Shown here: piece by piece, positions 11,651 through 45,115 of the stretch
How positions within the stretch are numbered: position 1 is the first letter of the stretch
How the letters are laid out: each line of letters begins with the position of its first letter
DNA from: Escherichia phage TH12
Strand: one strand, 5' to 3'
Sequence record: MT446390.1
Length of the DNA: 64,000 nucleotides
Position numbers and translations under genes: made by a program
The notes under the pieces: generated by a model
What the model was told of the DNA's origin: nothing
The model's input: the letters and a program-made list of their open reading frames with translations, nothing else
Databases searched by the model: none

Positions 11651-11708
11651 TTGTTTACAAGGTCTATGGTTGTGTTATTATAGACCTATCAACTACTGGA
11701 GGTAAAAC

Positions 11709-12236
11709 ATGAACGCTAAAGATATTTTCAACCTGGTAAATTATAACGACGGTAAATTTAAATCTGAAGCACAGAGCAAGTTCTTTAATGACGTTGCTTA
11801 TGGTAACGAGATTACCGTGGATGGAGGTCAGATTTTCAAATCTCGCTGGAATTGGATTGCTATCATCGATTCAGTTGGAATTGTGGAAGTCTACAAAAAC
11901 ACTAACAAAAAACGTACATTATTCTGGTCTCGTGAAACTAACGAACAGTACAAAAAGGATAAAGCATCTCGTTTATCCAAAGTAACCCAGGAAGATATCG
12001 AGTTTATCAAGAAAGATATCGAGATGTACGAAAATTTAATAGCTGAAGACCAGGCAGTACTCGATAAGTTTGATGAAATTAAAGCTTCTCGTGAAATCCC
12101 TGACTTCATGAAAGAAACAGTAAACGAACGATACGCTCTCACTTCAGAACGTATTGCAAACTATACAAAACAGAAAGCAGAACGTATTAGTACTCTTCGG
12201 AAATTTGAAGAACGTTTAAAGACGGTTCACGCATAA
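11709..12236 (+). CDS. Hypothetical protein (175 aa)
   Basis: ATG after TGGAGG; early promoter upstream. Confidence 0.6.
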   Translation: MNAKDIFNLVNYNDGKFKSEAQSKFFNDVAYGNEITVDGGQIFKSRWNWIAIIDSVGIVEVYKNTNKKRTLFWSRETNEQYKKDKASRLSKVTQEDIEFIKKDIEMYENLIAEDQAVLDKFDEIKASREIPDFMKETVNERYALTSERIANYTKQKAERISTLRKFEERLKTVHA

Positions 12237-12298
12237 ACGCTTTACCCAAGGACGGGTTATAATGGTTTTGAGTTCCAATTCAATCTGAGGAAATAGTT

Positions 12299-13294
12299 AT
12301 GAGCATTATATCTGATGCGGTAAAACATGAAATTAACGGTTTATGTGCTTCACAGATTAAAGTGTGGTTTAAAGACCATAACGATCGCAGAGCACTTAAT
12401 TATGAGCAAATTGCTATCCAAGTTCATCAATTACTGACTAGTAAATTTGATTTTCATATGCCATCTGAAATCTATACTAATCTGCCACGAGCACTTATTA
12501 AAGCGTGTAAAGGTTATGGAAAATCAATGGCTGATGGAATCTTCAGCGCGCTGAATAAACTTAACGTTCTGTCGATGATTAACTCTAACAATATCCTGCG
12601 TAATCTAGGACGTACTGATTTGTTCGGACGTGAACAGTGTAAAATGCCTTTGAAATGGATTGTTGCTCATCTTAACGAGAACCAAACACGTTTTATGGCC
12701 GTAACAGCACGTTTACAAATGGGCTTAGATCGTCAGATGAACTTTAAAACTCATCCATGTTATTCAGGTTCAACAGACTTTTATAAATGCGAGCTTCAAA
12801 AGGTCGGTGGCAAAACTGTCTTAGTAGTTCGTGTAACGTTTGAAGGACGACGTCAAGGATATTTTGACATAATCGGCTCTGGTCTTAAACATTGTGGATT
12901 TATCAACGAAGTTGATATCAAGCGAGACAGCGTTGGATACCGTATTGGGTATGTTTGTACTCTTAAAGAAGAGATTTCAGGACCAGCACCAGGACTAAAA
13001 GACGTTAGATATAAAGACGAGCTCGTTGAAGAAATAAAAGAAGTTGAATATGATATCAACCAAGAAGATGCTCTTAAAGACCTTATTGACGAACTAAACC
13101 AAGACGTTATTCCGGTTCAGAAATTTGAATCAAAACATGCTGAGCAAATCAAATACTTTGAAGCTTTGATTAACGAACTTAATGTAACTATTCAACAGAC
13201 TGACGATGAAATCTCACGATTAGCAGGCTTAAATGGTAAAAATAAAACAGAACGAGCTAATCTTATTCAAGTAGTAAAACTTCTTAAGGAATGA
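12299..13294 (+). CDS. Hypothetical protein (331 aa) with C-terminal coiled-coil-like segment
   Basis: ATG after TGAGGA; heptad-like C-terminus. Confidence 0.65.
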   Translation: MSIISDAVKHEINGLCASQIKVWFKDHNDRRALNYEQIAIQVHQLLTSKFDFHMPSEIYTNLPRALIKACKGYGKSMADGIFSALNKLNVLSMINSNNILRNLGRTDLFGREQCKMPLKWIVAHLNENQTRFMAVTARLQMGLDRQMNFKTHPCYSGSTDFYKCELQKVGGKTVLVVRVTFEGRRQGYFDIIGSGLKHCGFINEVDIKRDSVGYRIGYVCTLKEEISGPAPGLKDVRYKDELVEEIKEVEYDINQEDALKDLIDELNQDVIPVQKFESKHAEQIKYFEALINELNVTIQQTDDEISRLAGLNGKNKTERANLIQVVKLLKE

Positions 13295-13323
13295 TGTACA
13301 ACCAAGGATGGTTGGAGTATAAT
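13295..13323 (+). promoter_or_regulatory. Early promoter with spacer stem-loop (caacc-AAGGAT-ggttg) abutting TATAAT
   Basis: tgtaca 13295-13300, spacer hairpin, tataat 13318-13323. Confidence 0.6.
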
Positions 13324-13349
13324 AAATTTTTCAACATGAGGAATATAAA

Positions 13350-14309
13350 ATGGCTTTTATTACACGTAGAGAACTTATCAAAGAATTTACCTCGAACGCA
13401 TATACTCCAGGACCTAATCCTATCCGTATGCCTGTAAAGACTCCTGAAGAGATTGAGGAAATCTGTTCGTATTATGGGATTACTTCTCGTATGTTTACTC
13501 AATTTGAATGTGTTACTAACACGCCCGTTAAAGAGTTCATTAAAAATGGTGAGTTCAGCCGTTTATTAGCCAAACAGAAACTTCGTAATTTTTGTATTGG
13601 CGGTTGTGGACAATATTTCGCTAAGCAGTTCCGGAATAACCTTAACAATCTGATGGCCATTGCTTCTCGTATTCGTCCTCAAGCAATTAACATGAAACAT
13701 TTGAAATATACTTACGATAAGTTAGAAATCATGGTTATCAGTGAGAACGAGTTCACTCTTACGTATAAACCTAAGAATGATAACGTTGCTCGTGTATTCC
13801 ACCAAGCGCTAGAAGTGTTAGGCGATAATATCCATGAGATTAAAGCAATTTATTCTCGTGAGCTTAATATTATCGACCCTATCAAGAATAAGGGCCATAT
13901 CGCTATCCAGGCTCGTGTATCTATTGGTAAAAAGGTTCCTGCGCCATGGTGGCACAAAGACTCTGAATACTATCAAAATCTTAAAAAGGAAAATGCAACG
14001 TTCGAAGGCAATATCACAGCAACACCAGTCGGTAATGCAGAGGTTCTAAGCGCATATTCTCCGACACAACCCGGTATGTTTAAAGGTTTGCCAAATGTGT
14101 GCAAACTGTCGGCAGTAAAACTAAATGTTTCTAATGACCTTCTTCCGGCCGAAGATTATCATTACAACCAAATCAAGGCTACTGTAGACCAACTGTCCGT
14201 TGAACTTGACAAAGCACAAGCTAAGCTTCGTGATGCTCAAAGTGTTGTAACGAATCTCCAGTTGCAGTACTCTAAACTTTTTAATGCAATGAATGCATTA
14301 AAATCATAA
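13350..14309 (+). CDS. Hypothetical protein (319 aa) with C-terminal coiled-coil-like segment
   Basis: ATG after TGAGGA; own promoter. Confidence 0.65.
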   Translation: MAFITRRELIKEFTSNAYTPGPNPIRMPVKTPEEIEEICSYYGITSRMFTQFECVTNTPVKEFIKNGEFSRLLAKQKLRNFCIGGCGQYFAKQFRNNLNNLMAIASRIRPQAINMKHLKYTYDKLEIMVISENEFTLTYKPKNDNVARVFHQALEVLGDNIHEIKAIYSRELNIIDPIKNKGHIAIQARVSIGKKVPAPWWHKDSEYYQNLKKENATFEGNITATPVGNAEVLSAYSPTQPGMFKGLPNVCKLSAVKLNVSNDLLPAEDYHYNQIKATVDQLSVELDKAQAKLRDAQSVVTNLQLQYSKLFNAMNALKS

Positions 14310-14313
14310 AACG

Positions 14314-14343
14314 GTTTACAACCAAGGATGGTTGGAGTATAAT
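14314..14343 (+). promoter_or_regulatory. Early promoter with spacer stem-loop (caacc-AAGGAT-ggttg) abutting TATAAT
   Basis: gtttac 14314-14319, tataat 14338-14343; 26-nt identical to 13298-13323 and 56460-56485. Confidence 0.6.
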
Positions 14344-14371
14344 GAATCTATCTTAACGAGAGGAAAATATT

Positions 14372-15322
14372 ATGACACGTTCACATTACATTGAATACTT
14401 TGCCGGTCTTATCGCTAACGTTCATGCCCAGCGCGCTGTTGGTGCACTAGGATTTGATGTTCCACACCGAGATGTAGTAAGTGGTATTCTTCGCGATTTT
14501 GGTACATACACAGGTCAAGAAAATCATATCTGTAAAGATACTCAGAATGCGTATTCTCATTCATTAGGGACACTGCTTCAATGGTTCAAACGTTCTCGTT
14601 TATTATCTTCTACTGTAGCTCGCGATAACATTAAAAACTTTATGAAACCGAGCTTTATTAAATCTGTGACATCTAAAACCGATTTGGTTGAATTCACTAT
14701 TGTTAATGATGTTAAAAAGACTCATTTGGCTGATTGGTTATCTACCATTCCTGAAACTAAATTCGCTGATAAATTTGCTTGTGAATTCAATAACCAAGTG
14801 AATATGCTTTTTAAACATTCTCGTAAATTATTCACGGGCGGTGATGGTCGTACAAATAAAGTTCATGTTAAAGATTGGGTTACTGCAGTATTCAAACCGA
14901 CCGGTAATGGTAACGCATCATTATCAATTGATATCCAGGTTCCTTATTACTACTCACGTAATCTCGGTACCATGAAAGCTGAAGAAATTAATAAGCATAA
15001 CAAAACCGTTCGTTCATTGTCTTATAAACTTATTACATTGTTAGAGACTATGGATGTTGTTGAAACGTTCGACGAATCCGAAGATAACGGTTCAATGTTA
15101 TACAGTTCTCGCACCCGAATTAAGCTGAAGAACCCTAACGAGTATAAACTTAAGACTATTAAAGAACCTAAAGTAGAAAAAGTTGACAACTTGAGCGAAG
15201 AACGTGAATATCTCAAATCTCGTCTGAAAGAAGTCGAAGCCCAGATTAAAGAACAGACTAAATCATTAAAAGCTCTGAATGCAAAAGCTGATGGTTTACG
15301 AAATGCTATTGAGGTTTTATAA
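14372..15322 (+). CDS. Hypothetical protein (316 aa) with C-terminal coiled-coil-like segment
   Basis: ATG after AGAGGA; C-terminus LKSRLKEVEAQIKEQTKSLKALNAKADGLRNAIEVL. Confidence 0.65.
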   Translation: MTRSHYIEYFAGLIANVHAQRAVGALGFDVPHRDVVSGILRDFGTYTGQENHICKDTQNAYSHSLGTLLQWFKRSRLLSSTVARDNIKNFMKPSFIKSVTSKTDLVEFTIVNDVKKTHLADWLSTIPETKFADKFACEFNNQVNMLFKHSRKLFTGGDGRTNKVHVKDWVTAVFKPTGNGNASLSIDIQVPYYYSRNLGTMKAEEINKHNKTVRSLSYKLITLLETMDVVETFDESEDNGSMLYSSRTRIKLKNPNEYKLKTIKEPKVEKVDNLSEEREYLKSRLKEVEAQIKEQTKSLKALNAKADGLRNAIEVL

Positions 15323-15627
15323 TGAAACTACGTCTTTTAGAGGATATTGATATGAGCACTAATCATGGCTTGGTTAAGTTTATTGACGATAGTTCAAAGA
15401 TTGAATTTGTTCAGCGAGATAAAATCCACGGTGAAGAAGAGTTCGTTCCTCCGGCATGGAACGAAATCATGAAAATGGTTGAACGACGTGAAAATGCTGC
15501 CAAATCGGCGGCAAAACATCCATGCCCGGAATGTGGAACTATCCAAGTCCAACTGGTTAACTGGACCACTGATAACTTGAAATTGAAATGCCGTAAATGC
15601 TTCCACAAATTTGAGAGAATATTATAA
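15322..15627 (+). CDS. Zinc-ribbon protein (101 aa)
   Basis: C-terminal CPECG...CRKC motif; TAATG overlap with upstream stop. Confidence 0.6.
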   Translation: MKLRLLEDIDMSTNHGLVKFIDDSSKIEFVQRDKIHGEEEFVPPAWNEIMKMVERRENAAKSAAKHPCPECGTIQVQLVNWTTDNLKLKCRKCFHKFERIL

Positions 15628-16040
15628 TGAGATATAGCCTTCGTTGTTTTATCGCAGCTTTAGTTTTTGCCGTTATTCCATTCATTTGGAACAGTCAGAA
15701 TACTTACATGGAAACTAAAGTAATTCCTGTGGAGGTAGTGGAATTAATCTCAGGCCAATCTACAGGAAAATATTCTAAATTAGAATTTATTGCAGTCTAT
15801 AAAGATGAGCAAGGACGAGTTTTTGACAGGCGTGTATCGCCATCGTTTTATACGCTTCTGAATAAAGGTGATACGATAGCTATAGAAATTCGTGAGATGG
15901 ATATCAAACAAACTACTAAAGATAACTTGATTTGGTTCTTTGGTACAGTGTTGTTGGTTTCTATTTGTATCACAGGTTTTATTACATGTATTGTATTTGG
16001 CATTGCATATTTAATCGATGAAAGGAAAAATAATGTTTAA
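15627..16040 (+). CDS. Membrane protein (137 aa)
   Basis: N- and C-terminal hydrophobic helices. Confidence 0.6.
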   Translation: MRYSLRCFIAALVFAVIPFIWNSQNTYMETKVIPVEVVELISGQSTGKYSKLEFIAVYKDEQGRVFDRRVSPSFYTLLNKGDTIAIEIREMDIKQTTKDNLIWFFGTVLLVSICITGFITCIVFGIAYLIDERKNNV

Positions 16041-16296
16041 AGTGTACGGGTATGACTCTACTATTCATAAATGCATTTATTGCGATAATGCGAAACGACT
16101 GCTGACTGTTAAGAAACAGCCATTCGAATTCATTAACGTTATGCCAGAAAAAGGTGTATTCGATGATGAGAAAATTGCTGAGCTTCTGGTTAAGCTTGGA
16201 CGTGAATCACAAGTTGGATTGACTATGCCTCAAGTGTTTGCTCCTGACGGAAGTCACATTGGTGGATTTGACCAACTACGAGAATATTTTAAATGA
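16033..16296 (+). CDS. nrdC: Thioredoxin/glutaredoxin NrdC
   Basis: MFKVYGYDSTIHKCIYCDNAKRLL...QVFAPDGSHIGGFDQLREYFK matches T4 NrdC; 87 aa; track start 16018 lies upstream. Confidence 0.9.
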   Translation: MFKVYGYDSTIHKCIYCDNAKRLLTVKKQPFEFINVMPEKGVFDDEKIAELLVKLGRESQVGLTMPQVFAPDGSHIGGFDQLREYFK

Positions 16297-16589
16297 GTAT
16301 TGATTTAACTTTCCCTGGCCCTTATGACCAGAACGAATTAGAAACTTTGTTATATCAAGAAATGTGCTCTCGTGCTAAGAACGATATTCAGTATGCTATT
16401 GATAATCCATGGGGCGAATTTCGGGTAATGATGGGTAATAGAATCATCGGTGTCCAATGGCGATTCGTTGGCCTTGAGCCTGAGGACTATGAAGAAAACG
16501 AGCATGGTGACTGGATTCCTGTTGGTGAATACCACTGGGAATACGGTGGTCCTGACTTCGAAGTTTCCTGTGCATGGGTAGAACAATAA
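16293..16589 (+). CDS. Hypothetical protein (98 aa), bracketed by a direct repeat
   Basis: ATGA overlap with nrdC stop; flanked by repeats 16279-16296 / 16594-16611. Confidence 0.55.
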   Translation: MSIDLTFPGPYDQNELETLLYQEMCSRAKNDIQYAIDNPWGEFRVMMGNRIIGVQWRFVGLEPEDYEENEHGDWIPVGEYHWEYGGPDFEVSCAWVEQ

Positions 16590-16607
16590 ACTGCGAGAAT
16601 ATTTTAA

Positions 16608-16943
16608 ATGAACGATATTGATTTCGCCAAAGCATATAAATTTGTAGCAACTCTTCTCGGTCCTGACGCTCCTACTAAGCTTGAAGTTTTAAATTCTATT
16701 CCGACTTCATTGGTTCGAGATGCTGAAATATGGACATGGGACGACTCGGCTGTTTGTGAAGATCTGTACATTCTGATGAATGACATGATGGTTAAAAAGC
16801 CTGAAACAATGGTTACTATTACTGTTGAAGAATATAATCGCCTGCAAGCCATTGAAGAGCTTCTGTGGAACATTGAATGTGACCTGCCGTCAGGGCTAGA
16901 ATCCTGGATTGATTATGAAGAGCTCAATAAACTCCGGGGTTAA
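16608..16943 (+). CDS. Hypothetical acidic protein (111 aa)
   Basis: ATG immediately after second repeat copy. Confidence 0.55.
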   Translation: MNDIDFAKAYKFVATLLGPDAPTKLEVLNSIPTSLVRDAEIWTWDDSAVCEDLYILMNDMMVKKPETMVTITVEEYNRLQAIEELLWNIECDLPSGLESWIDYEELNKLRG

Positions 16944-17071
16944 ACCGTGGTATTCTGCTCGATGGGAGACTGTCGAGCCAGACGTCGAAACGGTTTACAA
17001 CGACGAAGAACCATGTTATGATGAACCTTCAATAAATGAATTAATTGATATGGAAATGGGAAGAGATTATT

Positions 17072-17242
17072 ATGCAAGTTAAATTATTGTACCGTTTATT
17101 AAAAAATGGCAAGCATGATTGGTATTTGCTTATTAAAACCGATCCGAATTTTTTCTCTGGACAACCATTTACAGTTCGTCCTACTAAACGTCAGCTTCGC
17201 AAAGCTAAACGTTCTCATCGTAACTTTTATAGAGAATATTGA
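17072..17242 (+). CDS. Small basic protein (56 aa), paralog-like to 45627-45839
   Basis: Internal ATG (MQVKLLY) after GGGAAGAG; C-terminal FTVRPTKRQLRKAKR matches FAVRPTKRQIRQEKR. Confidence 0.45.
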   Translation: MQVKLLYRLLKNGKHDWYLLIKTDPNFFSGQPFTVRPTKRQLRKAKRSHRNFYREY

Positions 17243-17243
17243 T

Positions 17244-17657
17244 ATGAATATTTCTGAAACTCGCGGTAAATGGTTCAAGATTGTTAAAGAAGACGAAGAA
17301 CTACAAGACAAGTTTCCTGAATTAAAGAAAGGAACAATCATCAAGGTAATTGGTACTACTACCGAAGATGGTTATGGCGACCATGGCATTATCGAAGTGA
17401 TGTTGAACACAGGTGAGAAACTTTGCATCTATGACCGTGATACTTCTCTTTGGTGCTTCTGGGAATCCCATTCAATAGATGAACTCGAAGAAATTGACCA
17501 AGTAGTTTGTGATGGTGGACTTGGTGAATTCGAAGGTGAACGTATTTCTTATGCTTTAGCTAAATTAGCTGGTCAAGAAAATAATGACGGTTATGAAGGT
17601 AATCTGATGCAAGCCGCAGCGGAATACATTGAATATTTAGAAAGACGTTTAAGTTAA
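17244..17657 (+). CDS. Hypothetical acidic protein (137 aa)
   Basis: Internal ATG (MNISETRG); track start 17106 lies inside upstream gene. Confidence 0.55.
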   Translation: MNISETRGKWFKIVKEDEELQDKFPELKKGTIIKVIGTTTEDGYGDHGIIEVMLNTGEKLCIYDRDTSLWCFWESHSIDELEEIDQVVCDGGLGEFEGERISYALAKLAGQENNDGYEGNLMQAAAEYIEYLERRLS

Positions 17658-17692
17658 TAAATACCCTTATCTATTTAAGGTAAGGGTTTATT

Positions 17693-18166
17693 ATGTTATT
17701 ATCTGGCAAATTATACAAAGAAGAAAAACAAAAATTTTATGATGCACAGAACGGTAAGTGTCCTATTTGCCACCGTGAATTAGACCCTGATGTTCAAGGT
17801 AACCATCTTGACCACGACCACGAGTTAAACGGGCCAAAAGCCGGTAGAGTTCGTGGATTACTCTGTAATCTGTGCAACGCAGCAGAAGGCCAAATGAAGC
17901 ATAAGTTCAACCGTTCTGGTCTTAAAGGTCAAAACGTTGATTACCTCGAATGGCTTGAAGCTCTTCTTGCTTATTTGAAACAAGATTATTCTGATAATAA
18001 TATCCATCCTAATTTTGTTCCAGACAAAACTAAAGAGTTCTCAAGACTAGGTAAAGAGGAAATGATGGCTGAGATGCTTCAAAGAGGATTTGAATATACT
18101 GAATCTGATACTAAAACACAATTAATAGCTTCATTCAAAAAGCAGCTTAGAAAGAGTTTAAAATGA
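17693..18166 (+). CDS. 49: Endonuclease VII (Holliday-junction resolvase)
   Basis: MLLSGKLYKEEKQKFYDAQNGKCPICHREL...HLDHDHELNGPKAG...LCNLCN matches T4 gp49; 157 aa. Confidence 0.95.
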   Translation: MLLSGKLYKEEKQKFYDAQNGKCPICHRELDPDVQGNHLDHDHELNGPKAGRVRGLLCNLCNAAEGQMKHKFNRSGLKGQNVDYLEWLEALLAYLKQDYSDNNIHPNFVPDKTKEFSRLGKEEMMAEMLQRGFEYTESDTKTQLIASFKKQLRKSLK

Positions 18167-19980
18167 AAATTGAAAAAGAAATTGAAGGATTAATTTATAA
18201 AACTAATAAAGATCTTTTGAACGAGAATGCTAATAAAGATTCTCGTGTTTTTCCAACTCAACGGGACCTTATGGCTGGTATTGTGTCTAAGCACATTGCC
18301 AAAAATATGGTCCCGTCTTTTATTATGAATGCGCATGAAAGCGGAATCATTCATATGCATGATATTGATTATTCTCCTGCTCTTCCGTTTACTAATTGTT
18401 GTTTAGTCGATTTAAAGGGGATGCTTGAGAATGGATTTAAATTAGGCAATGCTCAAATTGAAACGCCTAAATCGATTGGTGTTGCTACTGCAATTATGGC
18501 ACAAATTACTGCACAAGTTGCTTCCCATCAGTATGGCGGAACTACATTTGCGAATGTCGATAAAGTTCTTTCTCCTTATGTTAAACGTACATACGCTAAA
18601 CATGTTGAAGATGCAGAAAAATGGCAAATACCAGACATTCTGAATTATGCTCAATCTAAAACAGAAAAAGACGTATACGATGCATTCCAAGCTTATGAAT
18701 ATGAGGTAAATACTCTTTTTAGTTCAAACGGTCAAACGCCTTTTGTAACAATTACATTTGGTACTGGAACTGATTGGACCGAACGAATGATTCAGAAAGC
18801 AATTCTGAAAAATCGGATTAAAGGTCTCGGTCGTGATGGAATAACTCCTATTTTTCCTAAACTTGTTATGTTTGTTGAAGAAGGTGTTAATCTTTATAAA
18901 GATGATCCGAACTATGATATTAAACAACTTGCGTTAGAATGTGCAAGCAAAAGAATGTATCCTGACATTATTTCGGTTAAGAATAATAAAGCTATTACTG
19001 GTTCTTCAGTTCCAGTTTCTCCAATGGGTTGCCGTAGTTTCTTGAGTGTATGGAAAGATTCGACTGGTAATGAAATTCTTGATGGACGTAATAATCTCGG
19101 TGTTGTAACACTGAATCTTCCTCGCATCGCGTTAGATTCTTATATTGGAACACAGTTCAATGAACAGAAATTTGTTGAGCTATTTAATGAACGAATGGAT
19201 CTGTGCTTTGAAGCCTTGATGTGTAGAATTAGTTCCTTAAAAGGAGTTAAAGCGACTGTTGCTCCTATTCTTTACCAAGAAGGTGCATTCGGGGTTCGTC
19301 TTAAACCTGATGACGACATAATTGAGTTATTTAAAAACGGTAGAAGTTCAGTGTCTTTAGGATACATTGGTATTCACGAATTGAATATTCTTGTCGGACG
19401 TGATATTGGACAAGAAATTTTAACTAAAATGAATGCTCATCTTAAACAGTGGACCGAAAGAACTGGATTTGCTTTTAGCTTATATTCTACTCCTGCTGAA
19501 AACCTTTGTTATCGCTTCTGTAAACTTGATACAGAAAAATATGGAAGTGTAAAAGATGTCACTGATAAAGGCTGGTACACTAACAGTTTCCATGTTTCAG
19601 TAGAAGAAAATATTACTCCGTTTGAAAAGATTTCTCGTGAAGCCCCATATCATTTCATTGCGACAGGCGGTCACATTTCTTATGTTGAACTTCCTGATAT
19701 GAAAAATAACCTAAAAGGTCTTGAGGCTGTATGGGATTATGCTGCACAACATTTAGATTATTTTGGTGTTAATATGCCAGTAGATAAATGTTTTACATGT
19801 GGAAGTACTCATGAAATGACTCCTACTGAAAATGGATTTGTTTGTTCAGTTTGCGGAGAAACTGATCCTAAAAAGATGAACACTATAAGAAGGACCTGCG
19901 GTTATTTGGGAAATCCGAACGAGCGCGGATTTAATCTAGGCAAAAATAAAGAAATCATGCATAGGGTTAAACACCAATGA
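18163..19980 (+). CDS. nrdD: Anaerobic ribonucleoside-triphosphate reductase
   Basis: 605 aa; C-terminal glycyl-radical motif RRTCGYLG and zinc-ribbon CFTCGS...CSVCGE. Confidence 0.95.
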   Translation: MKIEKEIEGLIYKTNKDLLNENANKDSRVFPTQRDLMAGIVSKHIAKNMVPSFIMNAHESGIIHMHDIDYSPALPFTNCCLVDLKGMLENGFKLGNAQIETPKSIGVATAIMAQITAQVASHQYGGTTFANVDKVLSPYVKRTYAKHVEDAEKWQIPDILNYAQSKTEKDVYDAFQAYEYEVNTLFSSNGQTPFVTITFGTGTDWTERMIQKAILKNRIKGLGRDGITPIFPKLVMFVEEGVNLYKDDPNYDIKQLALECASKRMYPDIISVKNNKAITGSSVPVSPMGCRSFLSVWKDSTGNEILDGRNNLGVVTLNLPRIALDSYIGTQFNEQKFVELFNERMDLCFEALMCRISSLKGVKATVAPILYQEGAFGVRLKPDDDIIELFKNGRSSVSLGYIGIHELNILVGRDIGQEILTKMNAHLKQWTERTGFAFSLYSTPAENLCYRFCKLDTEKYGSVKDVTDKGWYTNSFHVSVEENITPFEKISREAPYHFIATGGHISYVELPDMKNNLKGLEAVWDYAAQHLDYFGVNMPVDKCFTCGSTHEMTPTENGFVCSVCGETDPKKMNTIRRTCGYLGNPNERGFNLGKNKEIMHRVKHQ

Positions 19981-21412: not shown

Positions 21413-21548
21413 TTTCTAATATAATCTATTGGAACCCTCACTTCACTATCTCCTTGTGCCCCTCTCAAATCAAAAATATTTTCATAAAACAGTTTACATC
21501 CTCGATAGATATGTTAAGATTAAACCATCTGCTATAGAGGAAAACAAA

Positions 21549-21731
21549 ATGACAATTGAAGATAAAGAAATTAAGGTTGACCAGTACTATTCTGTCAACG
21601 GTAATGCAGTACAGATAACCAGAGTTTCAAGCCTGGATGTTTGGTACCGTTCAATCAAATATCCAGAAATTGGTGAAATGCTTTGTGACCGTAGTATCTT
21701 CTGTTCAATTGCGAAGGAAATTAAGCCATGA
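21549..21731 (+). CDS. Hypothetical protein (60 aa)
   Basis: Internal ATG (MTIEDKEIK) after AGAGGA; early-promoter-like gtttac upstream. Confidence 0.5.
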   Translation: MTIEDKEIKVDQYYSVNGNAVQITRVSSLDVWYRSIKYPEIGEMLCDRSIFCSIAKEIKP

Positions 21732-23800: not shown

Positions 23801-23872
23801 TATCTCGTGCTTTAAGATAGGTCTCTAAATATTATGATATAATAGACCTATGAATTGAGCCAAGAGGTACTT

Positions 23873-24430
23873 ATGACTGAACAAAAACCTAAAAATAACT
23901 ATGTGAATAATAAAGAGCTTCTCGCCGCTATAATCGAGTGGAAAAAGGAGCTCTTAAATAATAAAGACCCAAACAAAATTATTCGTCAGAATGATACCAT
24001 CGGTTTAGCAATTATGCTTATCGCCGAAGGCCTGTCCAAACGTTTCAACTTTTCAGGATATACCCAGTCTTGGAAGCAGGAGATGATTGCAGATGGGATT
24101 GAAGCCTCTATTAAGGGACTTCATAATTTCGACGAAACTAAGTACAATAACCCACATGCATACATAACTCGAGCTTGTTTTAATGCTTTTGTCCAACGTA
24201 TCAAAAAAGAACGTAAGGAAGTTGCAAAGAAATATAGTTACTTCGTTCATAATGTCTACGACAGTCATGACGATGATATGGTAGCGTTGGTAGATGAAAC
24301 GTTTATTCAAGACATCTACGATAAAATGACGCATTATGAAGAATCCGCTTATAAAGCTCCTGGGGCTGAAAAGAAGGAAGTTGTTAGCGATTCGCCTAGT
24401 TTGGATTTTTTATATGAGGATGACAATTGA
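23873..24430 (+). CDS. 55: Late-transcription sigma factor gp55
   Basis: [27 protein letters not shown]...[38 protein letters not shown] matches T4 gp55; 185 aa; track start 23855 is non-ATG. Confidence 0.95.
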
Positions 24431-25603: not shown

Positions 25604-26619
25604 AAATTTTACATTTAGGTGACTTCCATATCGGCGTTAAACAGGACGACCCATGGGTTCAAGATATTCAACGGGATGGTATTCGTCAAGCAATTGAATA
25701 CTCTAAGAAACACGGTATTAAAACTTGGATTCAGTACGGTGATTGGTTTGACGTCCGTAAAGCAATTACACATCGTACGATGGAATTCAATCGTGAAATA
25801 GTTGATATGATTTCTAAGGCAGGCATTCACGTTCATGTCACGATAGGAAACCATGACATGGCGTTTAAGAATACAATAACACCTAACACTGTTTCTGAAT
25901 TGTTAACTCAATTTGAAAACTTTACTATTTACGAACATCCAACTACTGTAGATTTTGACGGATGTCTGATCGATATCGTTCCGTGGATGTGTGAAGAAAA
26001 TACAGGTGAAATCTTAGAGCACATCAAGACTTCTTCCGCAGCGTACTGTGTTGGGCACTGGGAACTGAACGGCTTTTATTTCTATAAAGGAATGAAGTCT
26101 CATGGGCTTGAACCTGATTTCTTAAAGACCTATAAACAAGTCTGGTCTGGCCACTTCCACACAATCTCTGAAGCTGCTAACGTCAAATATATTGGGACAC
26201 CATGGACCCTTACTGCAGGTGATGAGAACGATCCGCGAGGATTCTGGGTATTTGACACTGTTGTTGAACGTATGGAATTTATTCCCAATGAAACGACATG
26301 GCATCGACGAATCACTTATCCATTTAAAGGCAAAATCAATTATTCTGATTATACTAATCTAGCCGTACGTGTTATAGTATCAGAAATTGATTCAGAGTTG
26401 ACTAAATTTGAATCTGAACTTGAAAAAGTAGTTCACTCTCTTCGTATGGTTTCTAAAGTTGATAACAGTGTTGAATCTGATGACGACCAGGAAATCGAGA
26501 TTAAATCACTTCAAGATATCATTAAAGAATATATTGACGCGATTCCGGATATCTCAGACGAAGACAGAGAAGCGCTGGTCAAATATTCCAACGAACTTTA
26601 TATTGAGGCAACACAATGA
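25600..26619 (+). CDS. 47: Mre11-like recombination nuclease subunit gp47
   Basis: MKILHLGDFH...GDWFDV...GNHDM phosphoesterase motifs; 339 aa as in T4. Confidence 0.95.
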   Translation: MKILHLGDFHIGVKQDDPWVQDIQRDGIRQAIEYSKKHGIKTWIQYGDWFDVRKAITHRTMEFNREIVDMISKAGIHVHVTIGNHDMAFKNTITPNTVSELLTQFENFTIYEHPTTVDFDGCLIDIVPWMCEENTGEILEHIKTSSAAYCVGHWELNGFYFYKGMKSHGLEPDFLKTYKQVWSGHFHTISEAANVKYIGTPWTLTAGDENDPRGFWVFDTVVERMEFIPNETTWHRRITYPFKGKINYSDYTNLAVRVIVSEIDSELTKFESELEKVVHSLRMVSKVDNSVESDDDQEIEIKSLQDIIKEYIDAIPDISDEDREALVKYSNELYIEATQ

Positions 26620-39100: not shown

Positions 39101-39336
39101 TTTCTAGAAAAAGTTTTAATTATAAACTTAACGAAGAGATTTTGACTATGAAACTGAACACTAACGAACAAATTCTTAAAAAGGCCCTTATGGGCCTGTT
39201 TGAAACCAAAGCGGCTAAAGTGATTAAAGAACCTGTTCAATTGGAATACTACACTGATGCATTCCTTCATAGTGTTCTTGGAAGTATAGATTCTGAAGCT
39301 TTACGTTATATCAACATTGTCAAGAAATTCAAATAA
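39097..39336 (+). CDS. Hypothetical protein (79 aa)
   Basis: ATGA overlap; GAGGT upstream. Confidence 0.5.
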   Translation: MISRKSFNYKLNEEILTMKLNTNEQILKKALMGLFETKAAKVIKEPVQLEYYTDAFLHSVLGSIDSEALRYINIVKKFK

Positions 39337-39378
39337 GCTTTATGAATTGAGTATATAATAAATTGTATTGAGGTAAAT

Positions 39379-40095
39379 ATGGGAAAACATAACACAATGA
39401 AATATATCAAAGCCGCAGATTTTCAAACCGCATTTAAAGCAGTCAATCGTGAAATTTTAGAAAACCCCGAATTCGTAACTGATTCTCGTATTGGACGTTG
39501 TAATGAAATTGGGTCTATGACAGTAGTTGTTGACACTCCATCATCATTCAAAATGACCGACCCACGTATTAACCGCATCTCTTATGAATATGCCGAAGAC
39601 TTCTGGAAGTTTATGATTTCTGGTGGTACCAACGCAGAAGAAGCGTTTAAGGCATATCCTAATGTCGCTAAATTTATTTCTAAACCAAAATCAGATGTTT
39701 TGCCGGCGAACTTCAACACTTTCTATGGTCCTCGCATTGCGGCCCAATTACCAACTCTTCTAAAAGAACTTAAAGAAAAACCTAACTCTCGAAGAGTTGT
39801 GTTCCAAATTCTAGAAAGTTCTGATCAGGCTTTGCTTGATTCGGACGAAACACTTGAATATCCATGTACTGACTCAGTAACTTATTATATTCGTGATGGT
39901 AAGCTTTATACCCACTGTCATATGCGTTCTCAGAACTGTGCTGTTGTTATGCAGTTGGATTTTTATCTCCAAGGAAAATTACTTCATTATATCGCTAACG
40001 AATGTGGTGTAGAAGTTGGTGATTATACTCATACCATGGTAAGTGCCCATGTGTTTGAACGTGATTTTGATTATGTTAAAGGATTCCTTGACTAA
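39379..40095 (+). CDS. 42: dCMP hydroxymethylase homolog (thymidylate-synthase superfamily), divergent
   Basis: KPNSRRVVFQIL vs T4 NPDSRRGIMIY; PCTDSVTYYIRDGK...HMRSQN vs T4 MCTNTVQYLIRDKK...NMRSND; SAHVFERDF vs SLHVYSRHF; 238 aa. Confidence 0.75.
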   Translation: MGKHNTMKYIKAADFQTAFKAVNREILENPEFVTDSRIGRCNEIGSMTVVVDTPSSFKMTDPRINRISYEYAEDFWKFMISGGTNAEEAFKAYPNVAKFISKPKSDVLPANFNTFYGPRIAAQLPTLLKELKEKPNSRRVVFQILESSDQALLDSDETLEYPCTDSVTYYIRDGKLYTHCHMRSQNCAVVMQLDFYLQGKLLHYIANECGVEVGDYTHTMVSAHVFERDFDYVKGFLD

Positions 40096-40994
40096 TGGCT
40101 ATTTTCCGCGTACCAATCTTGAGTATGCGGTCTTATGAAACTGGACAGTATGCTATCCTTAAGGATGGCAACTTCCAACTTCATTTGCACCGTGCTAATC
40201 CGGGTGATGTGATTACATATCCACGTAATGCATCTGATATTAAAGAATGCGAACGTCTTTTCCCAGAATTTAAGTTTGTTCCATTATGGTATAAAGATAA
40301 CGCGTATAACACTCGTAAATATTTCTGGACTGAAAATGAATTTGTGGTTGATTCATTAATTGATTATTATGATTGTGATTTTCTAATCACAGATATCACT
40401 GGTTATGGCGGCGCTTTTGATGTGGAATTCAATTTCAATATCACTGCAGACCCTAATAAACCACGTTTTTATATTGATGAATTCTTAAAAACCGACATGT
40501 TGTCTGTTAATCGTTCACTTCAAACTACTGTGTTGAATGAACGTCAAAAAGGAGTGCTGGTTAACGCAGGTGCAGATGGTAATAAGATTATCGTAACGCA
40601 GAAAGTTATACGTCCTTCCATCATGCAGCGTCTTGTAGGTGATTTGGCTCCTATTCATCTAGATGGTATTTTTCATCCATTTCGAATTAGTGACCCATGT
40701 TATCGTTTTGAACAAGTGGTTGAATGTGCAATTCAATTAGGTCAACCGCTTTATATAACCGATCCAAATAATAGCTTCGACAGAAATAAGTATCCTGAAG
40801 AAGCGCTGATTCGAATTTTTAAACCAACTAAAACTGAGTACTATCAAATTCTTAAAGGACGTCCGAAAATTCAATATTTCGAAAATCCTGAAGAAGTATT
40901 CCATCCAGGTCTTGGTGAGTTCATCTACTTTAATGCTTTAATTTCTTCGCCGTATAATATACCTAAATACGAAGATGTCGTAATCGAGGAATAA
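40095..40994 (+). CDS. Hypothetical protein (299 aa) at the T4 beta-gt position
   Basis: TAATG overlap with 42 homolog; no family recognised. Confidence 0.6.
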   Translation: MAIFRVPILSMRSYETGQYAILKDGNFQLHLHRANPGDVITYPRNASDIKECERLFPEFKFVPLWYKDNAYNTRKYFWTENEFVVDSLIDYYDCDFLITDITGYGGAFDVEFNFNITADPNKPRFYIDEFLKTDMLSVNRSLQTTVLNERQKGVLVNAGADGNKIIVTQKVIRPSIMQRLVGDLAPIHLDGIFHPFRISDPCYRFEQVVECAIQLGQPLYITDPNNSFDRNKYPEEALIRIFKPTKTEYYQILKGRPKIQYFENPEEVFHPGLGEFIYFNALISSPYNIPKYEDVVIEE

Positions 40995-40995
40995 A

Positions 40996-41544
40996 ATGGC
41001 TAAAATTATTTTAGTAGACGGCCCAGATAATGCTGGTAAAACAACTTTCATTAATGACATAATGGAAATTAGTGAAAGATATGTAAAGATTGATTTCCCT
41101 AAACGAACAGTTGATGGACGTTTCGATGTTAAGTCTCGAAATGAAGTTGGTTGTTTCGAAACGATGTTGAATTATTTAGACCCTACTAAGATTTATCTGT
41201 TAGACCGTGGATATATTAGTAACTGGGTTTATGGACGTATTCGACAAGATGCGGACTCGGTTCTTGACGTTTATGAACAGGACTATGTTCGTCTTTGCCA
41301 AAACCATGATGTGTTCACAATTATTTTAACACGTAACGAAATGACTGAAAGTTTTGAAGACGACCTTATTACTTTGTCTTCATTCGGTTTTAATACAGTC
41401 GTTTCACATTTTGAAGAGTTTGCAATTCATAACAAAATCCAAACATATCAATTACTTAATCATGATGGTGCTAACAAAGTTATAGGATTTAATGCAAGCG
41501 AACGTAATTGTTTGATTACAGAAATCATCAAATGGGCTCGTTAA
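40996..41544 (+). CDS. P-loop kinase, thymidylate/dNMP-kinase-like
   Basis: Walker A ILVDGPDNAGKTT; LLDRGYISNWVYGR resembles Tmk DR(Y/H) region; 182 aa. Confidence 0.6.
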   Translation: MAKIILVDGPDNAGKTTFINDIMEISERYVKIDFPKRTVDGRFDVKSRNEVGCFETMLNYLDPTKIYLLDRGYISNWVYGRIRQDADSVLDVYEQDYVRLCQNHDVFTIILTRNEMTESFEDDLITLSSFGFNTVVSHFEEFAIHNKIQTYQLLNHDGANKVIGFNASERNCLITEIIKWAR

Positions 41545-41562
41545 GAGCCATTTAAAGTTTTA

Positions 41563-41589
41563 AATGCTGTATAACCCTTAGTATATAAT
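41563..41589 (+). promoter_or_regulatory. Candidate MotA-dependent middle promoter for uvsX
   Basis: aaTGCTgtA MotA-box-like 41563-41571, 12-bp gap, tataat 41584-41589. Confidence 0.45.
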
Positions 41590-41642
41590 CGTCTTATCTT
41601 TTAAACATGAGTAAAATATAATGATGCCTATGGAAAAATACA

Positions 41643-42815
41643 ATGTCTGATTTAAAATCTCGTCTGATTAAAGCTTCTACTTCTAAAATGACTGCGGACT
41701 TGACTAAGTCTAAGCTGTTTAATAATCGTGATGAAGTCCCTACTCGTATTCCGATGTTGAATATCGCACTAGGTGGTGCTCTGAATGCAGGATTGCAATC
41801 AGGCTTGACTATTTTTGCTGCACCTTCTAAACACTTTAAAACGCTGTTTGGACTAACTATGGTTGCAGCGTATATGAAGAAATATAAAGATGCAATCTGT
41901 TTGTTTTATGACTCAGAATTTGGTGCTTCAGAATCTTATTTTCGTTCAATGGGTGTTGATTTAGACCGTGTAGTTCATACTCCGATTCAATCTGTCGAAC
42001 AACTTAAAGTTGATATGACTAATCAGCTTGACGCGATTGAACGCGGTGATAAAGTTATTATCTTTATCGATTCAATCGGTAATACTGCATCTAAGAAAGA
42101 AACCGAAGATGCATTGAATGAGAAAGTCGTAGGTGATATGTCTCGTGCTAAGGCACTTAAATCTCTGTTCCGTATTGTGACTCCTTATCTGACTATTAAA
42201 GATATTCCATGTGTTGCAATCAACCATACAGCAATGGAAATCGGCGGATTGTATCCTAAAGAGATTATGGGCGGTGGTACAGGTATTCTTTATTCTGCCA
42301 ACACGGTATTTTTTATCTCTAAACGTCAGGTTAAAGAAGGTACAGAATTGACCGGTTATGACTTCACGTTGAAAGCGGAAAAATCTCGTACAGTTAAAGA
42401 GAAATCTACTTTCCCGATCACGGTTAATTTTGATGGCGGTATTGACCCATTCAGTGGCTTGTTAGAAATGGCAACTGAAATTGGTTTTGTAGTTAAGCCT
42501 AAAGCCGGGTGGTATGCTCGTGAATTCCTTGACGAAGAAACAGGCGAAATGATTCGTGAAGAGAAATCATGGCGTGCTAAAGCTACTGATTGTGTAGAAT
42601 TCTGGGGACCTTTGTTTAAACATAAGCCTTTCCGAGATGCAATTGAAACTAAATATAAACTAGGTGCTATCTCTTCTATTAAAGAAGTTGATGACGCTGT
42701 TAACGACCTTATTAATTGCAAAGCAACAACTAAAGTTCCGGTTAAAGCTTCTGATGCTCCGTCTGCAGCAGATATAGAAAACGACCTTGACGAAATGGAA
42801 GATTTCGATGAATAA
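41643..42815 (+). CDS. uvsX: RecA-like recombinase UvsX
   Basis: MSDLKSRLIKASTSKMTADLT...matches T4 UvsX N-terminus; C-terminal acidic tail; 390 aa. Confidence 0.95.
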   Translation: MSDLKSRLIKASTSKMTADLTKSKLFNNRDEVPTRIPMLNIALGGALNAGLQSGLTIFAAPSKHFKTLFGLTMVAAYMKKYKDAICLFYDSEFGASESYFRSMGVDLDRVVHTPIQSVEQLKVDMTNQLDAIERGDKVIIFIDSIGNTASKKETEDALNEKVVGDMSRAKALKSLFRIVTPYLTIKDIPCVAINHTAMEIGGLYPKEIMGGGTGILYSANTVFFISKRQVKEGTELTGYDFTLKAEKSRTVKEKSTFPITVNFDGGIDPFSGLLEMATEIGFVVKPKAGWYAREFLDEETGEMIREEKSWRAKATDCVEFWGPLFKHKPFRDAIETKYKLGAISSIKEVDDAVNDLINCKATTKVPVKASDAPSAADIENDLDEMEDFDE

Positions 42816-43149
42816 TCTCGATGATTTAAATCTAGAAATCGTTGATGAATCCCCTTCTTCGGAAGGGGAAGACATTCGCAAAGAACGAGTGTTTAATGAA
42901 TCTCTTAAAATTATCCGTTCAGCAATGGAAAATGTCATTCAAGAGATTCTGATTACACTTGAAGACGGTTCTCATCATATAGTCTATATTACAAAACTAG
43001 ACTGGGTTGATGGTAAAATCGTAATGGACTTTGCAGTTCTTGACCAGGACAGAAAAGCAGAACTTGCACCACATGTTGAAAAATGTGTTACAATGCAGGT
43101 ACAACAAGCTTTTAATGAACGAACCAAGAAAAAATTTAAATTCTTTTAA
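42808..43149 (+). CDS. Hypothetical protein, gp40-like by synteny (113 aa)
   Basis: Internal ATG overlapping uvsX stop; sits between uvsX and 41 as T4 gene 40. Confidence 0.5.
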   Translation: MNNLDDLNLEIVDESPSSEGEDIRKERVFNESLKIIRSAMENVIQEILITLEDGSHHIVYITKLDWVDGKIVMDFAVLDQDRKAELAPHVEKCVTMQVQQAFNERTKKKFKFF

Positions 43150-43158
43150 GGAGTTATC

Positions 43159-44601
43159 GTGGTAGAAATTATTTTGTCTCATCTCGTATATGACCAGGCT
43201 TATTTTTCTAAGGTCTGGCCTTATATGGATTCTGATTACTTTGAGCGTGGACCGGCAAAAAATGTCTTTAAAATTATAAAGAACCACGTTAACGAATATA
43301 ACGCAATGCCATCCATTAATGCATTAAAGGTGGCTTTAGATAACAGTTCTTTAACTGAAGCCGAATATAAAGGAACTTCAGACTTAATTGAAAAATTGGC
43401 TGATACTCCTGAAGACCACGAATGGTTGGTTAAAGAAACTGAGAAATATGTCCAGCAAAAAGCGATGTATAATGCTACATCCAAAATCATTGAGATTCAG
43501 TCTAATGCTGAACTACCTCCAGAACAACGTAACAAGAAAATGCCTGATGTAGGAGCTATTCCTGATATTATGCGTCAAGCACTTTCAATTTCGTTCGATA
43601 GTTATGTTGGACATGACTGGATGGAAGACTACGAAGCACGCTGGCTTTCTTATCTAAATAAAGCACGTAAGGTCCCGTTCAAATTAAACATTTTGAATAA
43701 AATAACCAAAGGTGGTGCAGAAACAGGTACACTAAACGTTTTAATGGCCGGTGTTAACGTCGGTAAATCTTTAGGCCTTTGTTCACTTGCTGCAGATTAT
43801 CTTCAAACAGGTCATAATGTTCTTTATATTTCCATGGAAATGGCTGAAGAAGTTTGTGCTAAGCGTATAGATGCAAACATGCTTGACGTATCACTCGATG
43901 ATATCGATGATGGTAACGTATCTTATGCTGAATATAAAGCCAAGATGGAAAAATGGCGTTCAAAAACAACATTAGGACGTTTAGTAGTTAAACAGTATCC
44001 TACTGGTGGAGCTAATGCTAATACATTCCGTGCGTTGCTTAATGAGTTAAAACTTAAGAAGAACTTTGTGCCATCTGTAATCATGGTTGATTACTTAGGT
44101 ATTTGTGGGTCTTGTCGTATCAGAGTTTACACTGAAAATAGCTACACATTAGTTAAAGCTATCGCAGAAGAACTTCGTGCATTAGCAGTAGAATCTGAAA
44201 CAGTTCTATGGACTGCAGCTCAAGTAGGACGTGCAGCATGGGATGCTTCAGACATGAACATGAGTGATATCGCAGAATCAGCAGGTTTACCAGCAACGGC
44301 AGATTTCATGTTGGCCGTAATTGAAACCGAAGAACTTGCACAAGCTGAACAACAACTTATCAAACAAATCAAATCACGATACGGTGATAAGAATAAGTGG
44401 AACAAGTTCTTGATGGGTGTACGTAAAGGCAATCAGAAATGGGTTGAGATTGAGCAAGAAGGCATGAACACACCTAACACAGTAAATGAAAACGCAGGTG
44501 CTCAGATGCGTCAGGCAGAGGTGAATCGTACGGAACGCGTAGGTAAAGCCAAAGCAACACGTGCTGACCTAGATAGCTTAGCCAATGAGTTAAAATTTTA
44601 A
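43159..44601 (+). CDS. 41: Replicative DNA helicase gp41 (DnaB-like)
   Basis: GTG start after TAAGGAG; MVEIILSHLVYDQAYFSKVWPYMDS and Walker A GVNVGKS; 480 aa. Confidence 0.95.
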   Translation: MVEIILSHLVYDQAYFSKVWPYMDSDYFERGPAKNVFKIIKNHVNEYNAMPSINALKVALDNSSLTEAEYKGTSDLIEKLADTPEDHEWLVKETEKYVQQKAMYNATSKIIEIQSNAELPPEQRNKKMPDVGAIPDIMRQALSISFDSYVGHDWMEDYEARWLSYLNKARKVPFKLNILNKITKGGAETGTLNVLMAGVNVGKSLGLCSLAADYLQTGHNVLYISMEMAEEVCAKRIDANMLDVSLDDIDDGNVSYAEYKAKMEKWRSKTTLGRLVVKQYPTGGANANTFRALLNELKLKKNFVPSVIMVDYLGICGSCRIRVYTENSYTLVKAIAEELRALAVESETVLWTAAQVGRAAWDASDMNMSDIAESAGLPATADFMLAVIETEELAQAEQQLIKQIKSRYGDKNKWNKFLMGVRKGNQKWVEIEQEGMNTPNTVNENAGAQMRQAEVNRTERVGKAKATRADLDSLANELKF

Positions 44602-44605
44602 TAAA

Positions 44606-44625
44606 AAGGAGACTTCGGTCTCCTT
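44606..44625 (+). terminator. UUCG hairpin (terminator/processing candidate)
   Basis: aaggagac-ttcg-gtctcctt; short T-tract. Confidence 0.5.
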
Positions 44626-44689
44626 TCGGGGTTTACATCTTCCTCTAGGCATGATATGATGAACTTACACCAACCAAGAGGAAAACATT

Positions 44690-45064
44690 ATGAATATGTC
44701 TCAAGCAATTTTTACTGCAATCACAGAAAACACAACTGTTGAAGTAGTTTCTCCACTGGCAACCTACGTTATTCTTGCCCCTAAAACTATTGTATCTCGT
44801 ATGGAAAACATGGGCAAACGTATCGTACAAATTGTCGGAGCCGGAAATCAAAAACTTGATTATCTGCGAACCATCAAAGCTTATGAACATTTCCAACTCG
44901 AAAAAGGTTCTCCTATCCGGGTAGAACTCGTAAATGGTGATATCGTTCGAGCAATGTTCCATCATTTCTATGCATTGAATGACCCATCTAAAGCGGTTCG
45001 TTTAATTGCATACGACGCAAACCAAAACGAAATCAACGCAGATATATCTAAATTACGTTTTTAA
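44690..45064 (+). CDS. Hypothetical protein (124 aa)
   Basis: ATG after AGAGGA; early-promoter-like gtttac upstream. Confidence 0.6.
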   Translation: MNMSQAIFTAITENTTVEVVSPLATYVILAPKTIVSRMENMGKRIVQIVGAGNQKLDYLRTIKAYEHFQLEKGSPIRVELVNGDIVRAMFHHFYALNDPSKAVRLIAYDANQNEINADISKLRF

Positions 45065-45115
45065 GTTTACTTCTCCGGTAGTTGTGTTATTATAGACCTA
45101 TCAACTACTGGAGAA
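45065..45115 (+). promoter_or_regulatory. T4-type early promoter with 14-bp inverted repeat sequestering the SD
   Basis: gtttac 45065-45070, tattat 45088-45093; arms ttctccggtagttg / caactactggagaa. Confidence 0.6.

Follow-up and report, generated by a model that had tools for sequence, protein, structure and literature searches.

A 33-nucleotide (nt) sequence, GTTGTGTTATTATAGACCTATCAACTACTGGAG, occurs twice, exactly, on the + strand of a 64,000-nt stretch of the genome of Escherichia phage TH12 (record MT446390.1), at 11669-11701 and at 45081-45113. (We call the whole 64,000-nt stretch the window.) These 33-mers are very probably the downstream halves of two among about 25 cassettes, each with an early promoter of the T4 type and a leader, which are of the kind known as PeSLs (early promoters with a stem-loop) and which recombine locally with their neighbors. 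The window is 96-98% identical to genomes of Mosigvirus, which are RB69-like T4-type coliphages, and all of its real genes are on the + strand.

The repeat and its two promoters

An earlier note on this DNA had described a near-identical duplicate of about 34 bp, with its copies 33 kb apart, and had called it a promoter/leader cassette. An exact repeat search recovers this duplicate as the 33-mer; the coordinates that had been given for it are 3-5 nt too low, and the repeat is real. There is no third match to the 33-mer in the window at up to 3 mismatches, and 0.00 matches are expected in shuffled sequences. Outside of the 33-mer, identity between the copies falls to 77% (over 64 nt). A 14-nt core, TATAGACCTATCAA, is more widespread: it is found exactly at 10208, 11679, 45091, and 58568, and with 2 mismatches at 3922, 23841, 26123, and 53340. 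These 8 matches (0.8 are expected) are all on the + strand. They include all four of the related copies that had been listed (at about 3915, 10205, 23835, and 58560), and the match at 53340 is a further cassette beyond that list. The match at 26123 lies inside an open reading frame (ORF) and may be a chance occurrence. We discount altogether the idea that the repeat is a chance or low-complexity match, given the expectations from shuffling for both the 33-mer and the core and given that the copies are all on one strand, in front of genes. An exact scan of IMG/VR with a 28-nt core matched 4 stretches on 3 contigs.

Both copies read GTTTAC-N17-TGT-TATTAT, with GGAG twenty nt after the -10 box and then ATG, so the label of promoter/leader cassette fits them well. 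In copy 1, the -35 box GTTTAC (11653-11658) is followed by a 17-nt spacer, a TGT-extended -10 box TATTAT (11676-11681), the Shine-Dalgarno (SD) sequence GGAGG (11698-11702), and the ATG at 11709. Its motif score of 46.1 is the highest in the window. In copy 2, the corresponding elements are GTTTAC at 45065-45070, TATTAT at 45088-45093, GGAG at 45110-45113, and the ATG at 45120. Given this layout, the 33-mer runs from the end of the spacer, through the extended -10 box, the start region, and the leader, to the Shine-Dalgarno sequence.

Nolan et al. (2006, PMC1524935) list the orthologues of both copies in phage RB69 among their predicted early promoters. Specifically, Pe:53683, which is directly upstream of nrdC.8, corresponds to copy 1, and Pe:20537, which is upstream of RB69ORF040c, corresponds to copy 2. 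The neighbor of copy 2, the cassette at 44631, corresponds to Pe:20971, upstream of RB69ORF041c (same source). In the record for Mosigvirus SA79RD, the orthologue of copy 1 is annotated as a T4 early promoter, and the record quotes the consensus for these promoters as GTTTAC(N14)gtggTAttaT.

A family of early-promoter cassettes

We scanned both strands of the window with a two-block position-weight matrix. All 25 cassettes that this identified are on the + strand (the - strand has 0), with 12 of them at 0.7-21.5 kb and 13 at 44.6-58.6 kb (Table 1). The matrix scan found no cassette in between (21.5-44.6 kb), where the polymerase and other replication genes are. The cassettes sit between genes, ahead of + strand ORFs such as denV, regB, nrdC.x, modA/B, srd, and motB-like genes, and in 25 of 25 cassettes, GGAG or GAGG is found 5-9 nt ahead of an ATG. 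Just upstream of the -35 box, the cassettes average 71.5% A+T over 25 nt, as compared to 62.9% for the window (the standard deviation for 25-mers is 8.9). A scan for the generic sigma-70 consensus shows no enrichment (55 sites vs. 66 expected at 1-20 kb, and 58 sites vs. 51 expected at 44-60 kb), so only the extended T4-type motif is informative.

Each cassette is thus predicted to comprise a sigma-70-type early promoter (GTTTAC, 17-18 nt, TAnnAT, and an A/T-rich region upstream) and then, 26-30 nt later, GGAG or GAGG with an ATG. Because it would combine a promoter, an SD, and a start codon, a cassette would serve to initiate both the transcription and the translation of the single gene, or short run of genes, behind it.

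The site at 23811-23876 is related to the cassettes: it has GCTT upstream, not GTTTAC, and an inverted repeat that encloses TATTAT/TATAAT. It may be a middle-promoter version of the cassette, like the "PmSL" elements of phage nt-1.

Recombination between neighboring cassettes

We aligned the left region of the window to AlbertHofmann, PNJ-6, phi25-307, and FL18, and the right region to FL18, moskry, AV116, and TH58, and we counted distinct indels or replacements of at least 100 nt. Among 25 such events, 10 touch a cassette's footprint, while the footprints account for 5.1% of the compared sequence (P about 7e-5, if events were placed uniformly). Five of the events are clean cassette-by-cassette events whose junctions are base-level chimeras of two neighboring cassettes (Table 1). 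A crossover inside two neighboring cassettes of the same orientation deletes or inserts exactly one gene, and leaves behind one cassette that is chimeric but still complete.

The chimeric junctions recur. At least 9 genomes, which come from different laboratories, have the junction between cassettes 44631 and 45065 (copy 2) as contiguous sequence, and the junction between 13294 and 14314 is contiguous in 21 of 153 records. Because the junctions recur across independent genomes, they are not artefacts of the assembly of a single record. The 124-amino-acid (aa) ORF at 44690-45064, which is the gene between cassettes 44631 and 45065, is present in 132 of roughly 157 Mosigvirus records. Among the records with E. 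coli LF82 as the host, this ORF is present in only 3, although the surrounding DNA is matched in 13, so its presence appears to vary even within a single group of closely related isolates.

By genome comparison, then, the cassette family acts locally as a recombination substrate. The earlier note had proposed that the dispersed repeats could be substrates for recombination and module shuffling, and this holds for the family: there are five chimeric junctions, and one of them fuses cassette 44631 to copy 2. (The proposal fares differently for the distant pair, as discussed below.)

Several points weigh against our reading of these cassettes. The uniform null is generous, as viable indels must fall between genes anyway, and 15 of the 25 events have both ends outside of cassettes. 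The identity at the crossovers is about 10-27 nt, which makes microhomology or replication slippage indistinguishable from homologous recombination, and each single-gene event may be a gain or a loss. Promoter activity and start sites are deduced from the sequence and from the precedent of T4 and RB69.

Table 1. Candidate cassettes in the window, a related site, and single-gene differences with chimeric junctions in relatives. Stem classes and energies are predicted.
Feature	Coordinates	Strand	Genome	Details
Cassette, class I	686..745	+		Upstream of denV; spacer CTCC... pairs with SD ...GGAG; -19.1 kcal/mol
Cassette, no stable stem	1427..1490	+		Upstream of internal-protein-like gene; indel junction 1485-1511
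Cassette, class I, long leader	1793..1906	+		Upstream of vs.8 orthologue; indel junction 1865-1913
Cassette, class I	3896..3955	+		Upstream of regB; stem CTCCTCTAGTTG / CAACTAGAGGAG, -21.6 kcal/mol
Cassette, class I	7340..7398	+		From matrix scan and fold
Cassette, class II	7789..7849	+		Stem TTGGTAGGACTAT / ATAGTCCTACCAA overlaps -10; -20.9 kcal/mol
Chimeric cassette, weak class II	10182..10252	+		Upstream of nrdC.10 orthologue
Cassette copy 1, class II	11653..11711	+		Upstream of nrdC.8 orthologue
Cassette, class III	13294..13352	+		Spacer hairpin AACCAAGGATGGTT; left partner in FL18-type deletion
Cassette, class III	14314..14374	+		Right partner in FL18-type deletion
Weaker cassette	16993..17074	+		Partly within coding sequence; score 25.2
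Cassette, class I	21492..21551	+		From matrix scan and fold
Related cassette-like site	23811..23876	+		2-mismatch core; inverted repeat ATAGGTCT / AGACCTAT
Cassette, class I	44631..44692	+		Upstream of 124-aa ORF 44690-45064 (RB69ORF041c orthologue); recombination partner of copy 2 in TH58-type genomes
Cassette copy 2, class I	45065..45122	+		Upstream of 105-aa ORF of unknown function (RB69ORF040c orthologue), just before dmd
Cassette	45842..45902	+		Upstream of imm-region gene
Cassette, no stem	46272..46332	+		From matrix scan and fold
Cassette, class II	46583..46644	+		From matrix scan and fold
Cassette	50466..50526	+		Canonical terminator ahead (50430-50451)
Cassette, stem weak or unclassified	51935..51993	+		Upstream of modA/modB-type gene
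Cassette, stem weak or unclassified	52572..52632	+		Upstream of modA/modB-type gene
Cassette, stem weak or unclassified	53314..53395	+		Upstream of srd
Cassette, class III	56456..56518	+		Left partner in AV116-type deletion
Cassette, class III	57013..57075	+		Right partner in AV116-type deletion
Cassette, class I	57962..58019	+		Left partner in a TH58-type deletion; -23.9 kcal/mol
Cassette, class II	58541..58601	+		Exact core TATAGACCTATCAA; right partner in a TH58-type deletion
Loss of one nrdC paralogue	13327..14317		FL18	Crossover in shared 27 nt TACAACCAAGGATGGTTGGAGTATAAT
Loss of one motB-like paralogue	56519..57012		AV116	Crossover at GGAGTATAAT
Loss of 124-aa ORF and promoter half of copy 2	44694..45110		TH58	Chimera: promoter from cassette 44631, SD and ATG from copy 2
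Loss	58019..58562		TH58	Crossover between cassettes 57962 and 58541
Extra 219-nt gene (RB69ORF102c) with a cassette on either side			phi25-307, FL18, RB69	Window has one chimeric cassette at 10182; crossover in shared core

The pair of copies 33 kb apart

The 33-mer is the longest exact match among all pairs of cassettes. (It is followed by matches of 30 and 27 nt; the median for a pair is 8 nt.) Also, the left halves of the two copies differ while their right halves are identical, which is the pattern that a crossover would leave. So we considered whether the identity reflects a recent gene conversion or recombination between the copies at 11.7 kb and 45.1 kb, which would make the pair an active long-range substrate. 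We searched with hybrid queries that join the left flank of one copy to the right flank of the other, in both combinations. No record covers at least 80% of either hybrid (there were 160 and 434 matching records, and about 160 Mosigvirus genomes). Both cassettes are kept at their own loci in every relative that we examined.

Variants of the two copies do not move together, either. Each cassette differs from its counterparts in relatives by 0-1 nt, and these differences are not common to both copies within a genome. For example, FL18 has a C>T change in copy 2 and not in copy 1, and a G>A change is found in copy 1 only in 3 of the 4 relatives checked and in RB69. In RB69, 3 positions distinguish the two copies, and one of these is a 1-nt deletion. 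We also considered that the copies might evolve in concert, and rejected this on the basis of these alignments of orthologues. Furthermore, the nrdC.8 leader of the Tequatrovirus RB18 already reads ATCAACTACGGAGG, so that part of the sequence is old. Finally, the copies are direct repeats, so that a crossover between them would remove 33 kb, with essential genes for DNA polymerase and other replication proteins, and would not be expected to yield a viable phage. Overall, we consider long-range exchange to be very improbable, and we infer that the identity of the pair is inherited family similarity, maintained by constraint on the promoter and leader.

For this pair, then, the proposal of a recombination substrate is not supported. 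Comparing the flanking genes, as the earlier note had suggested, shows that the genes that flank copy 1 are invariant in all of the relatives examined. The upstream neighbor of copy 2 is missing from TH58-type genomes.

Stems embedded in the promoters

Folding with ViennaRNA predicts a clear stem that is embedded in the promoter for about 17 of the 25 cassettes. Another 5 are without a clear stem, and 3 are weak or unclassified (51935, 52572, and 53314). In class I (686, 1793, 3896, 7340, 21492, 44631, 45065, and 57962), a spacer with CTCC pairs with a leader with GGAG, and the stem encloses the -10 box. In class II (7789, 11653, 46583, 58541, and, weakly, 10182), the spacer pairs with the region of the -10 box and the start site (GGTCTAT / ATAGACC). 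In class III (13294, 14314, 56456, and 57013), a small hairpin lies wholly within the spacer. The predicted energies for classes I and II range from about -9.5 to -24 kcal/mol.

These stems are specific and are not a by-product of the promoter consensus. The left and right arms of the same cassette pair at an average of -10.5 kcal/mol, as compared to -7.8 kcal/mol for arms taken across cassettes, and 0 of 20,000 permutations reach this value. In an RNAalifold consensus of ten class I cassettes, 10 of the 11 consensus pairs keep their pairing through two-sided changes. Similarly, the stem of the regB cassette is kept, with different bases, in the orthologue from Tequatrovirus RB18.

Copy 1 has a predicted 11-pair stem (11660-11670 / 11677-11687, or AGGTCTATGGT / ATTATAGACCT; -13.6 kcal/mol) that overlaps the -10 box. 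Copy 2 has a predicted 14-pair stem between the promoter's spacer (45071-45084) and the leader with the SD (45102-45115), which encloses the -10 box (-21.0 kcal/mol). The right arm of the stem is the 5' half of the 33-mer in copy 1 and the 3' half in copy 2, so the identical 33-mer has different structural roles in the two copies. Copy 2 has a G at position 45076, in its spacer arm, both in the window and in FL18, and this would form a G-U wobble with the leader arm, while moskry, AV116, and RB69 have an A, which would form a Watson-Crick pair. This tolerance for G-U is a small hint that the stem of copy 2 matters in RNA rather than in DNA.

Since the left arm lies in the promoter's spacer, upstream of the start site, an RNA hairpin would form only on transcripts that read through from upstream. 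The stems could be mainly terminators or attenuators of these upstream transcripts, as the authors who described PeSLs proposed. In their work, a PeSL stem-loop from phage phi1 lowered the expression of a lacZ gene placed downstream, to about the same extent as the rrnB T1 terminator did, and a terminator call by WebGeSTer overlaps the orthologue of copy 1 in SA79RD. But none of the cassettes' stems is followed by a T run, and no cassette stem is among the terminator-like hairpins listed for the + strand at 1-20 kb and 44-60 kb. In particular, neither copy has the G+C-rich hairpin with an immediate T run of a canonical intrinsic terminator. (The sequence after the stem is ATCAACTAC in copy 1 and AACAAAATG in copy 2.) Also, separate canonical terminators lie ahead of several of the cassettes (for example, at 50430-50451, 7301-7328, and 10136-10153). 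We consider termination to be an unlikely main role for the embedded stems.

Another possibility, which we think less likely than not, is that the spacer arm of class I stems masks the SD on read-through RNA, so that the gene would be translated only from its own promoter's transcript. For the cassettes at 686, 3896, 45065, and 57962, the predicted probability that the SD is unpaired is 0.57-0.75 on the cassette's own transcript and 0.00-0.23 on read-through RNA (for copy 2, 0.57 vs. 0.02). The conservation of pairing described above, both among the copies in the window and in regB from RB18, is consistent with this idea, and there is a documented precedent with late promoters, in the T4 genes e, soc, 49, and I-TevI (PMC3014915). 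However, the support within these phages is computational, and the effect is absent from copy 1 (0.21 vs. 0.27). As a property of the whole family, SD masking did not survive comparison to controls: the raw difference, 0.61 vs. 0.42, was significant, but 55 control genes show a similar effect of length (across all 25 cassettes, accessibility drops by 0.19, vs. 0.12 for the control genes, P = 0.11). Because of the result for the control genes, we narrowed the claim to the four cassettes.

More broadly, the stems that have the SD as their right arm (about eight cassettes, including copy 2) might be translational insulators, with read-through RNA being untranslatable and each gene being translated from its own early transcript alone. 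We think this somewhat doubtful. If it were true, each accessory gene would be self-contained for both transcription and translation, which would explain why the neighbors need not be disturbed when a cassette is moved or lost together with its gene. It would also extend the mechanism of T4 e, soc, and I-TevI from late promoters to early ones.

Relation to known systems

As defined by Arbiol et al. (2010, PMC2839356) and Comeau et al. (2014, PMC4122927), a PeSL has an A/T-rich region and then an early promoter; its stem-loop lies between the promoter's boxes or over them, and an SD and an ATG follow. PeSLs are concentrated in hyperplastic regions, where they are crossover points for inserting, deleting, or swapping single genes between close relatives, and excised mini-circles have been shown experimentally (both also from PMC2839356 and PMC4122927). 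So the idea of shuffling mediated by PeSLs is already published. By their sequences, the cassettes in the window have every feature of a PeSL: an A/T-rich upstream region, a sigma-70-like early promoter, and a stem between or overlapping the -35 and -10 boxes, followed by an SD and ATG. As with PeSLs, they cluster in hyperplastic regions, single-gene indels leave a chimeric cassette, and the crossovers map between the -10 box and the ATG. There are some differences. PeSLs were described for RB49/phi1, PST/T4, and nt-1/KVP40, and not for the RB69 group. The stems for PST/T4 were drawn upstream of the promoter, while many of the stems in the window are embedded in it, as in RB49/phi1. In about eight of the window's cassettes, the SD itself is the right arm of the stem. 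What we add is, first, Mosigvirus as a further group with PeSL-type cassettes, documented by base-level chimeras and population frequencies, and second, the use of the Shine-Dalgarno sequence as the right arm of several embedded stems.

As promoters, the cassettes do not differ in kind from the early promoters of T4 and RB69. (For RB69, the predicted early promoters number 57 in the text and 58 in the supplementary list of Nolan et al. 2006, PMC1524935.) They share the -35 box, the spacing, and the extended -10 box, both copies map to listed promoters of RB69, and C is favored just upstream of the start, as was noted for RB69. The papers on these promoters are silent about embedded stems and recombination.

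In the T4 genes e, soc, 49, and I-TevI, a hairpin sequesters the SD and has a late promoter within its 5' arm, and the ribosome-binding site is free only on the transcript that starts at this internal promoter (Uzan and Miller 2010, PMC3014915). Those are late promoters and the effect was shown experimentally, while here the promoter is early, the effect is predicted, and it concerns a subset of the cassettes. The cassettes with their genes also resemble the morons of lambdoid phages, which Arbiol et al. (2010, PMC2839356) discuss and which are single accessory genes that come with a promoter and a terminator, but in the window, the conserved flanks are themselves the crossover sites.

Gene content and other variable sites

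From annotated relatives, the left part of the window (0-22 kb) is the e / denV / regB / tk / rI / nrdC.x / nrdD region, the middle part has replication genes, including a 903-aa polymerase ORF, and the right part (44-60 kb) has gene 41, dmd, imm, 61, 56, modA/B, srd, dda, dexA, motB-like genes, and gene 39. A 65-aa ORF just after gene 61 (49332-49529, - strand), between two + strand genes, is the only ORF on the opposite strand that is annotated in relatives. No Rfam family reaches its gathering threshold anywhere in the window. In PHROGs, every flanking ORF falls in families of unknown function, except for a weak second match of the ORF at 56516-57010 to a family of MotB-like transcriptional regulators.

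There are two tandem arrays of paralogues: five nrdC.x-type ORFs of about 316-331 aa (9145-15322) and four motB-like ORFs (56516-58541). Most of these ORFs have their own cassette, and the copy number of the arrays varies between relatives via cassette-by-cassette crossovers.

Other sites vary in other ways. At the position that corresponds to 7301-7328, FL18 has an extra 558-nt gene (FL18 7200-7870), which is flanked by two copies of a terminator hairpin (AGCCCCTTCC...GGTTGGGGCTTTTTT), not by promoter cassettes, and is preceded by TATAAATA, a T4 late-promoter motif. So terminators may serve as crossover sites too. Small genes at 400-431, 1160-1191, and 1485-1516 open with the same 27 nt (encoding MKTYQEFI...), which we take to match the capsid-targeting leader of T4 internal proteins. 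In relatives, extra genes are inserted exactly at these repeated 5' coding ends (junctions 1485-1511 and 1865-1913), which fits an older picture of shuffling at the internal protein locus. In PNJ-6, nrdD (18163-19980 in the window) is split by a 1-kb insert that is annotated as a homing endonuclease, and two genes that are likewise annotated as homing endonucleases take the place of most of nrdD in FL18. Lastly, at 50100-50139, moskry and TH58 have about 350-385 extra nt, with no cassette at either end. This extra DNA is annotated as soc.2/soc.1 in moskry and is unannotated in TH58.

Implications

Long-range pairs such as the copies at 11.7 kb and 45.1 kb are not productive substrates for recombination. 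The RB69 group joins the T4-type phages whose early-promoter cassettes are the seams at which accessory genes are gained and lost. These phages are widely used for therapy and biocontrol, and the gene content of the two variable regions, including the copy number of nrdC.x and motB-like genes, can shift by simple crossovers between neighboring cassettes.

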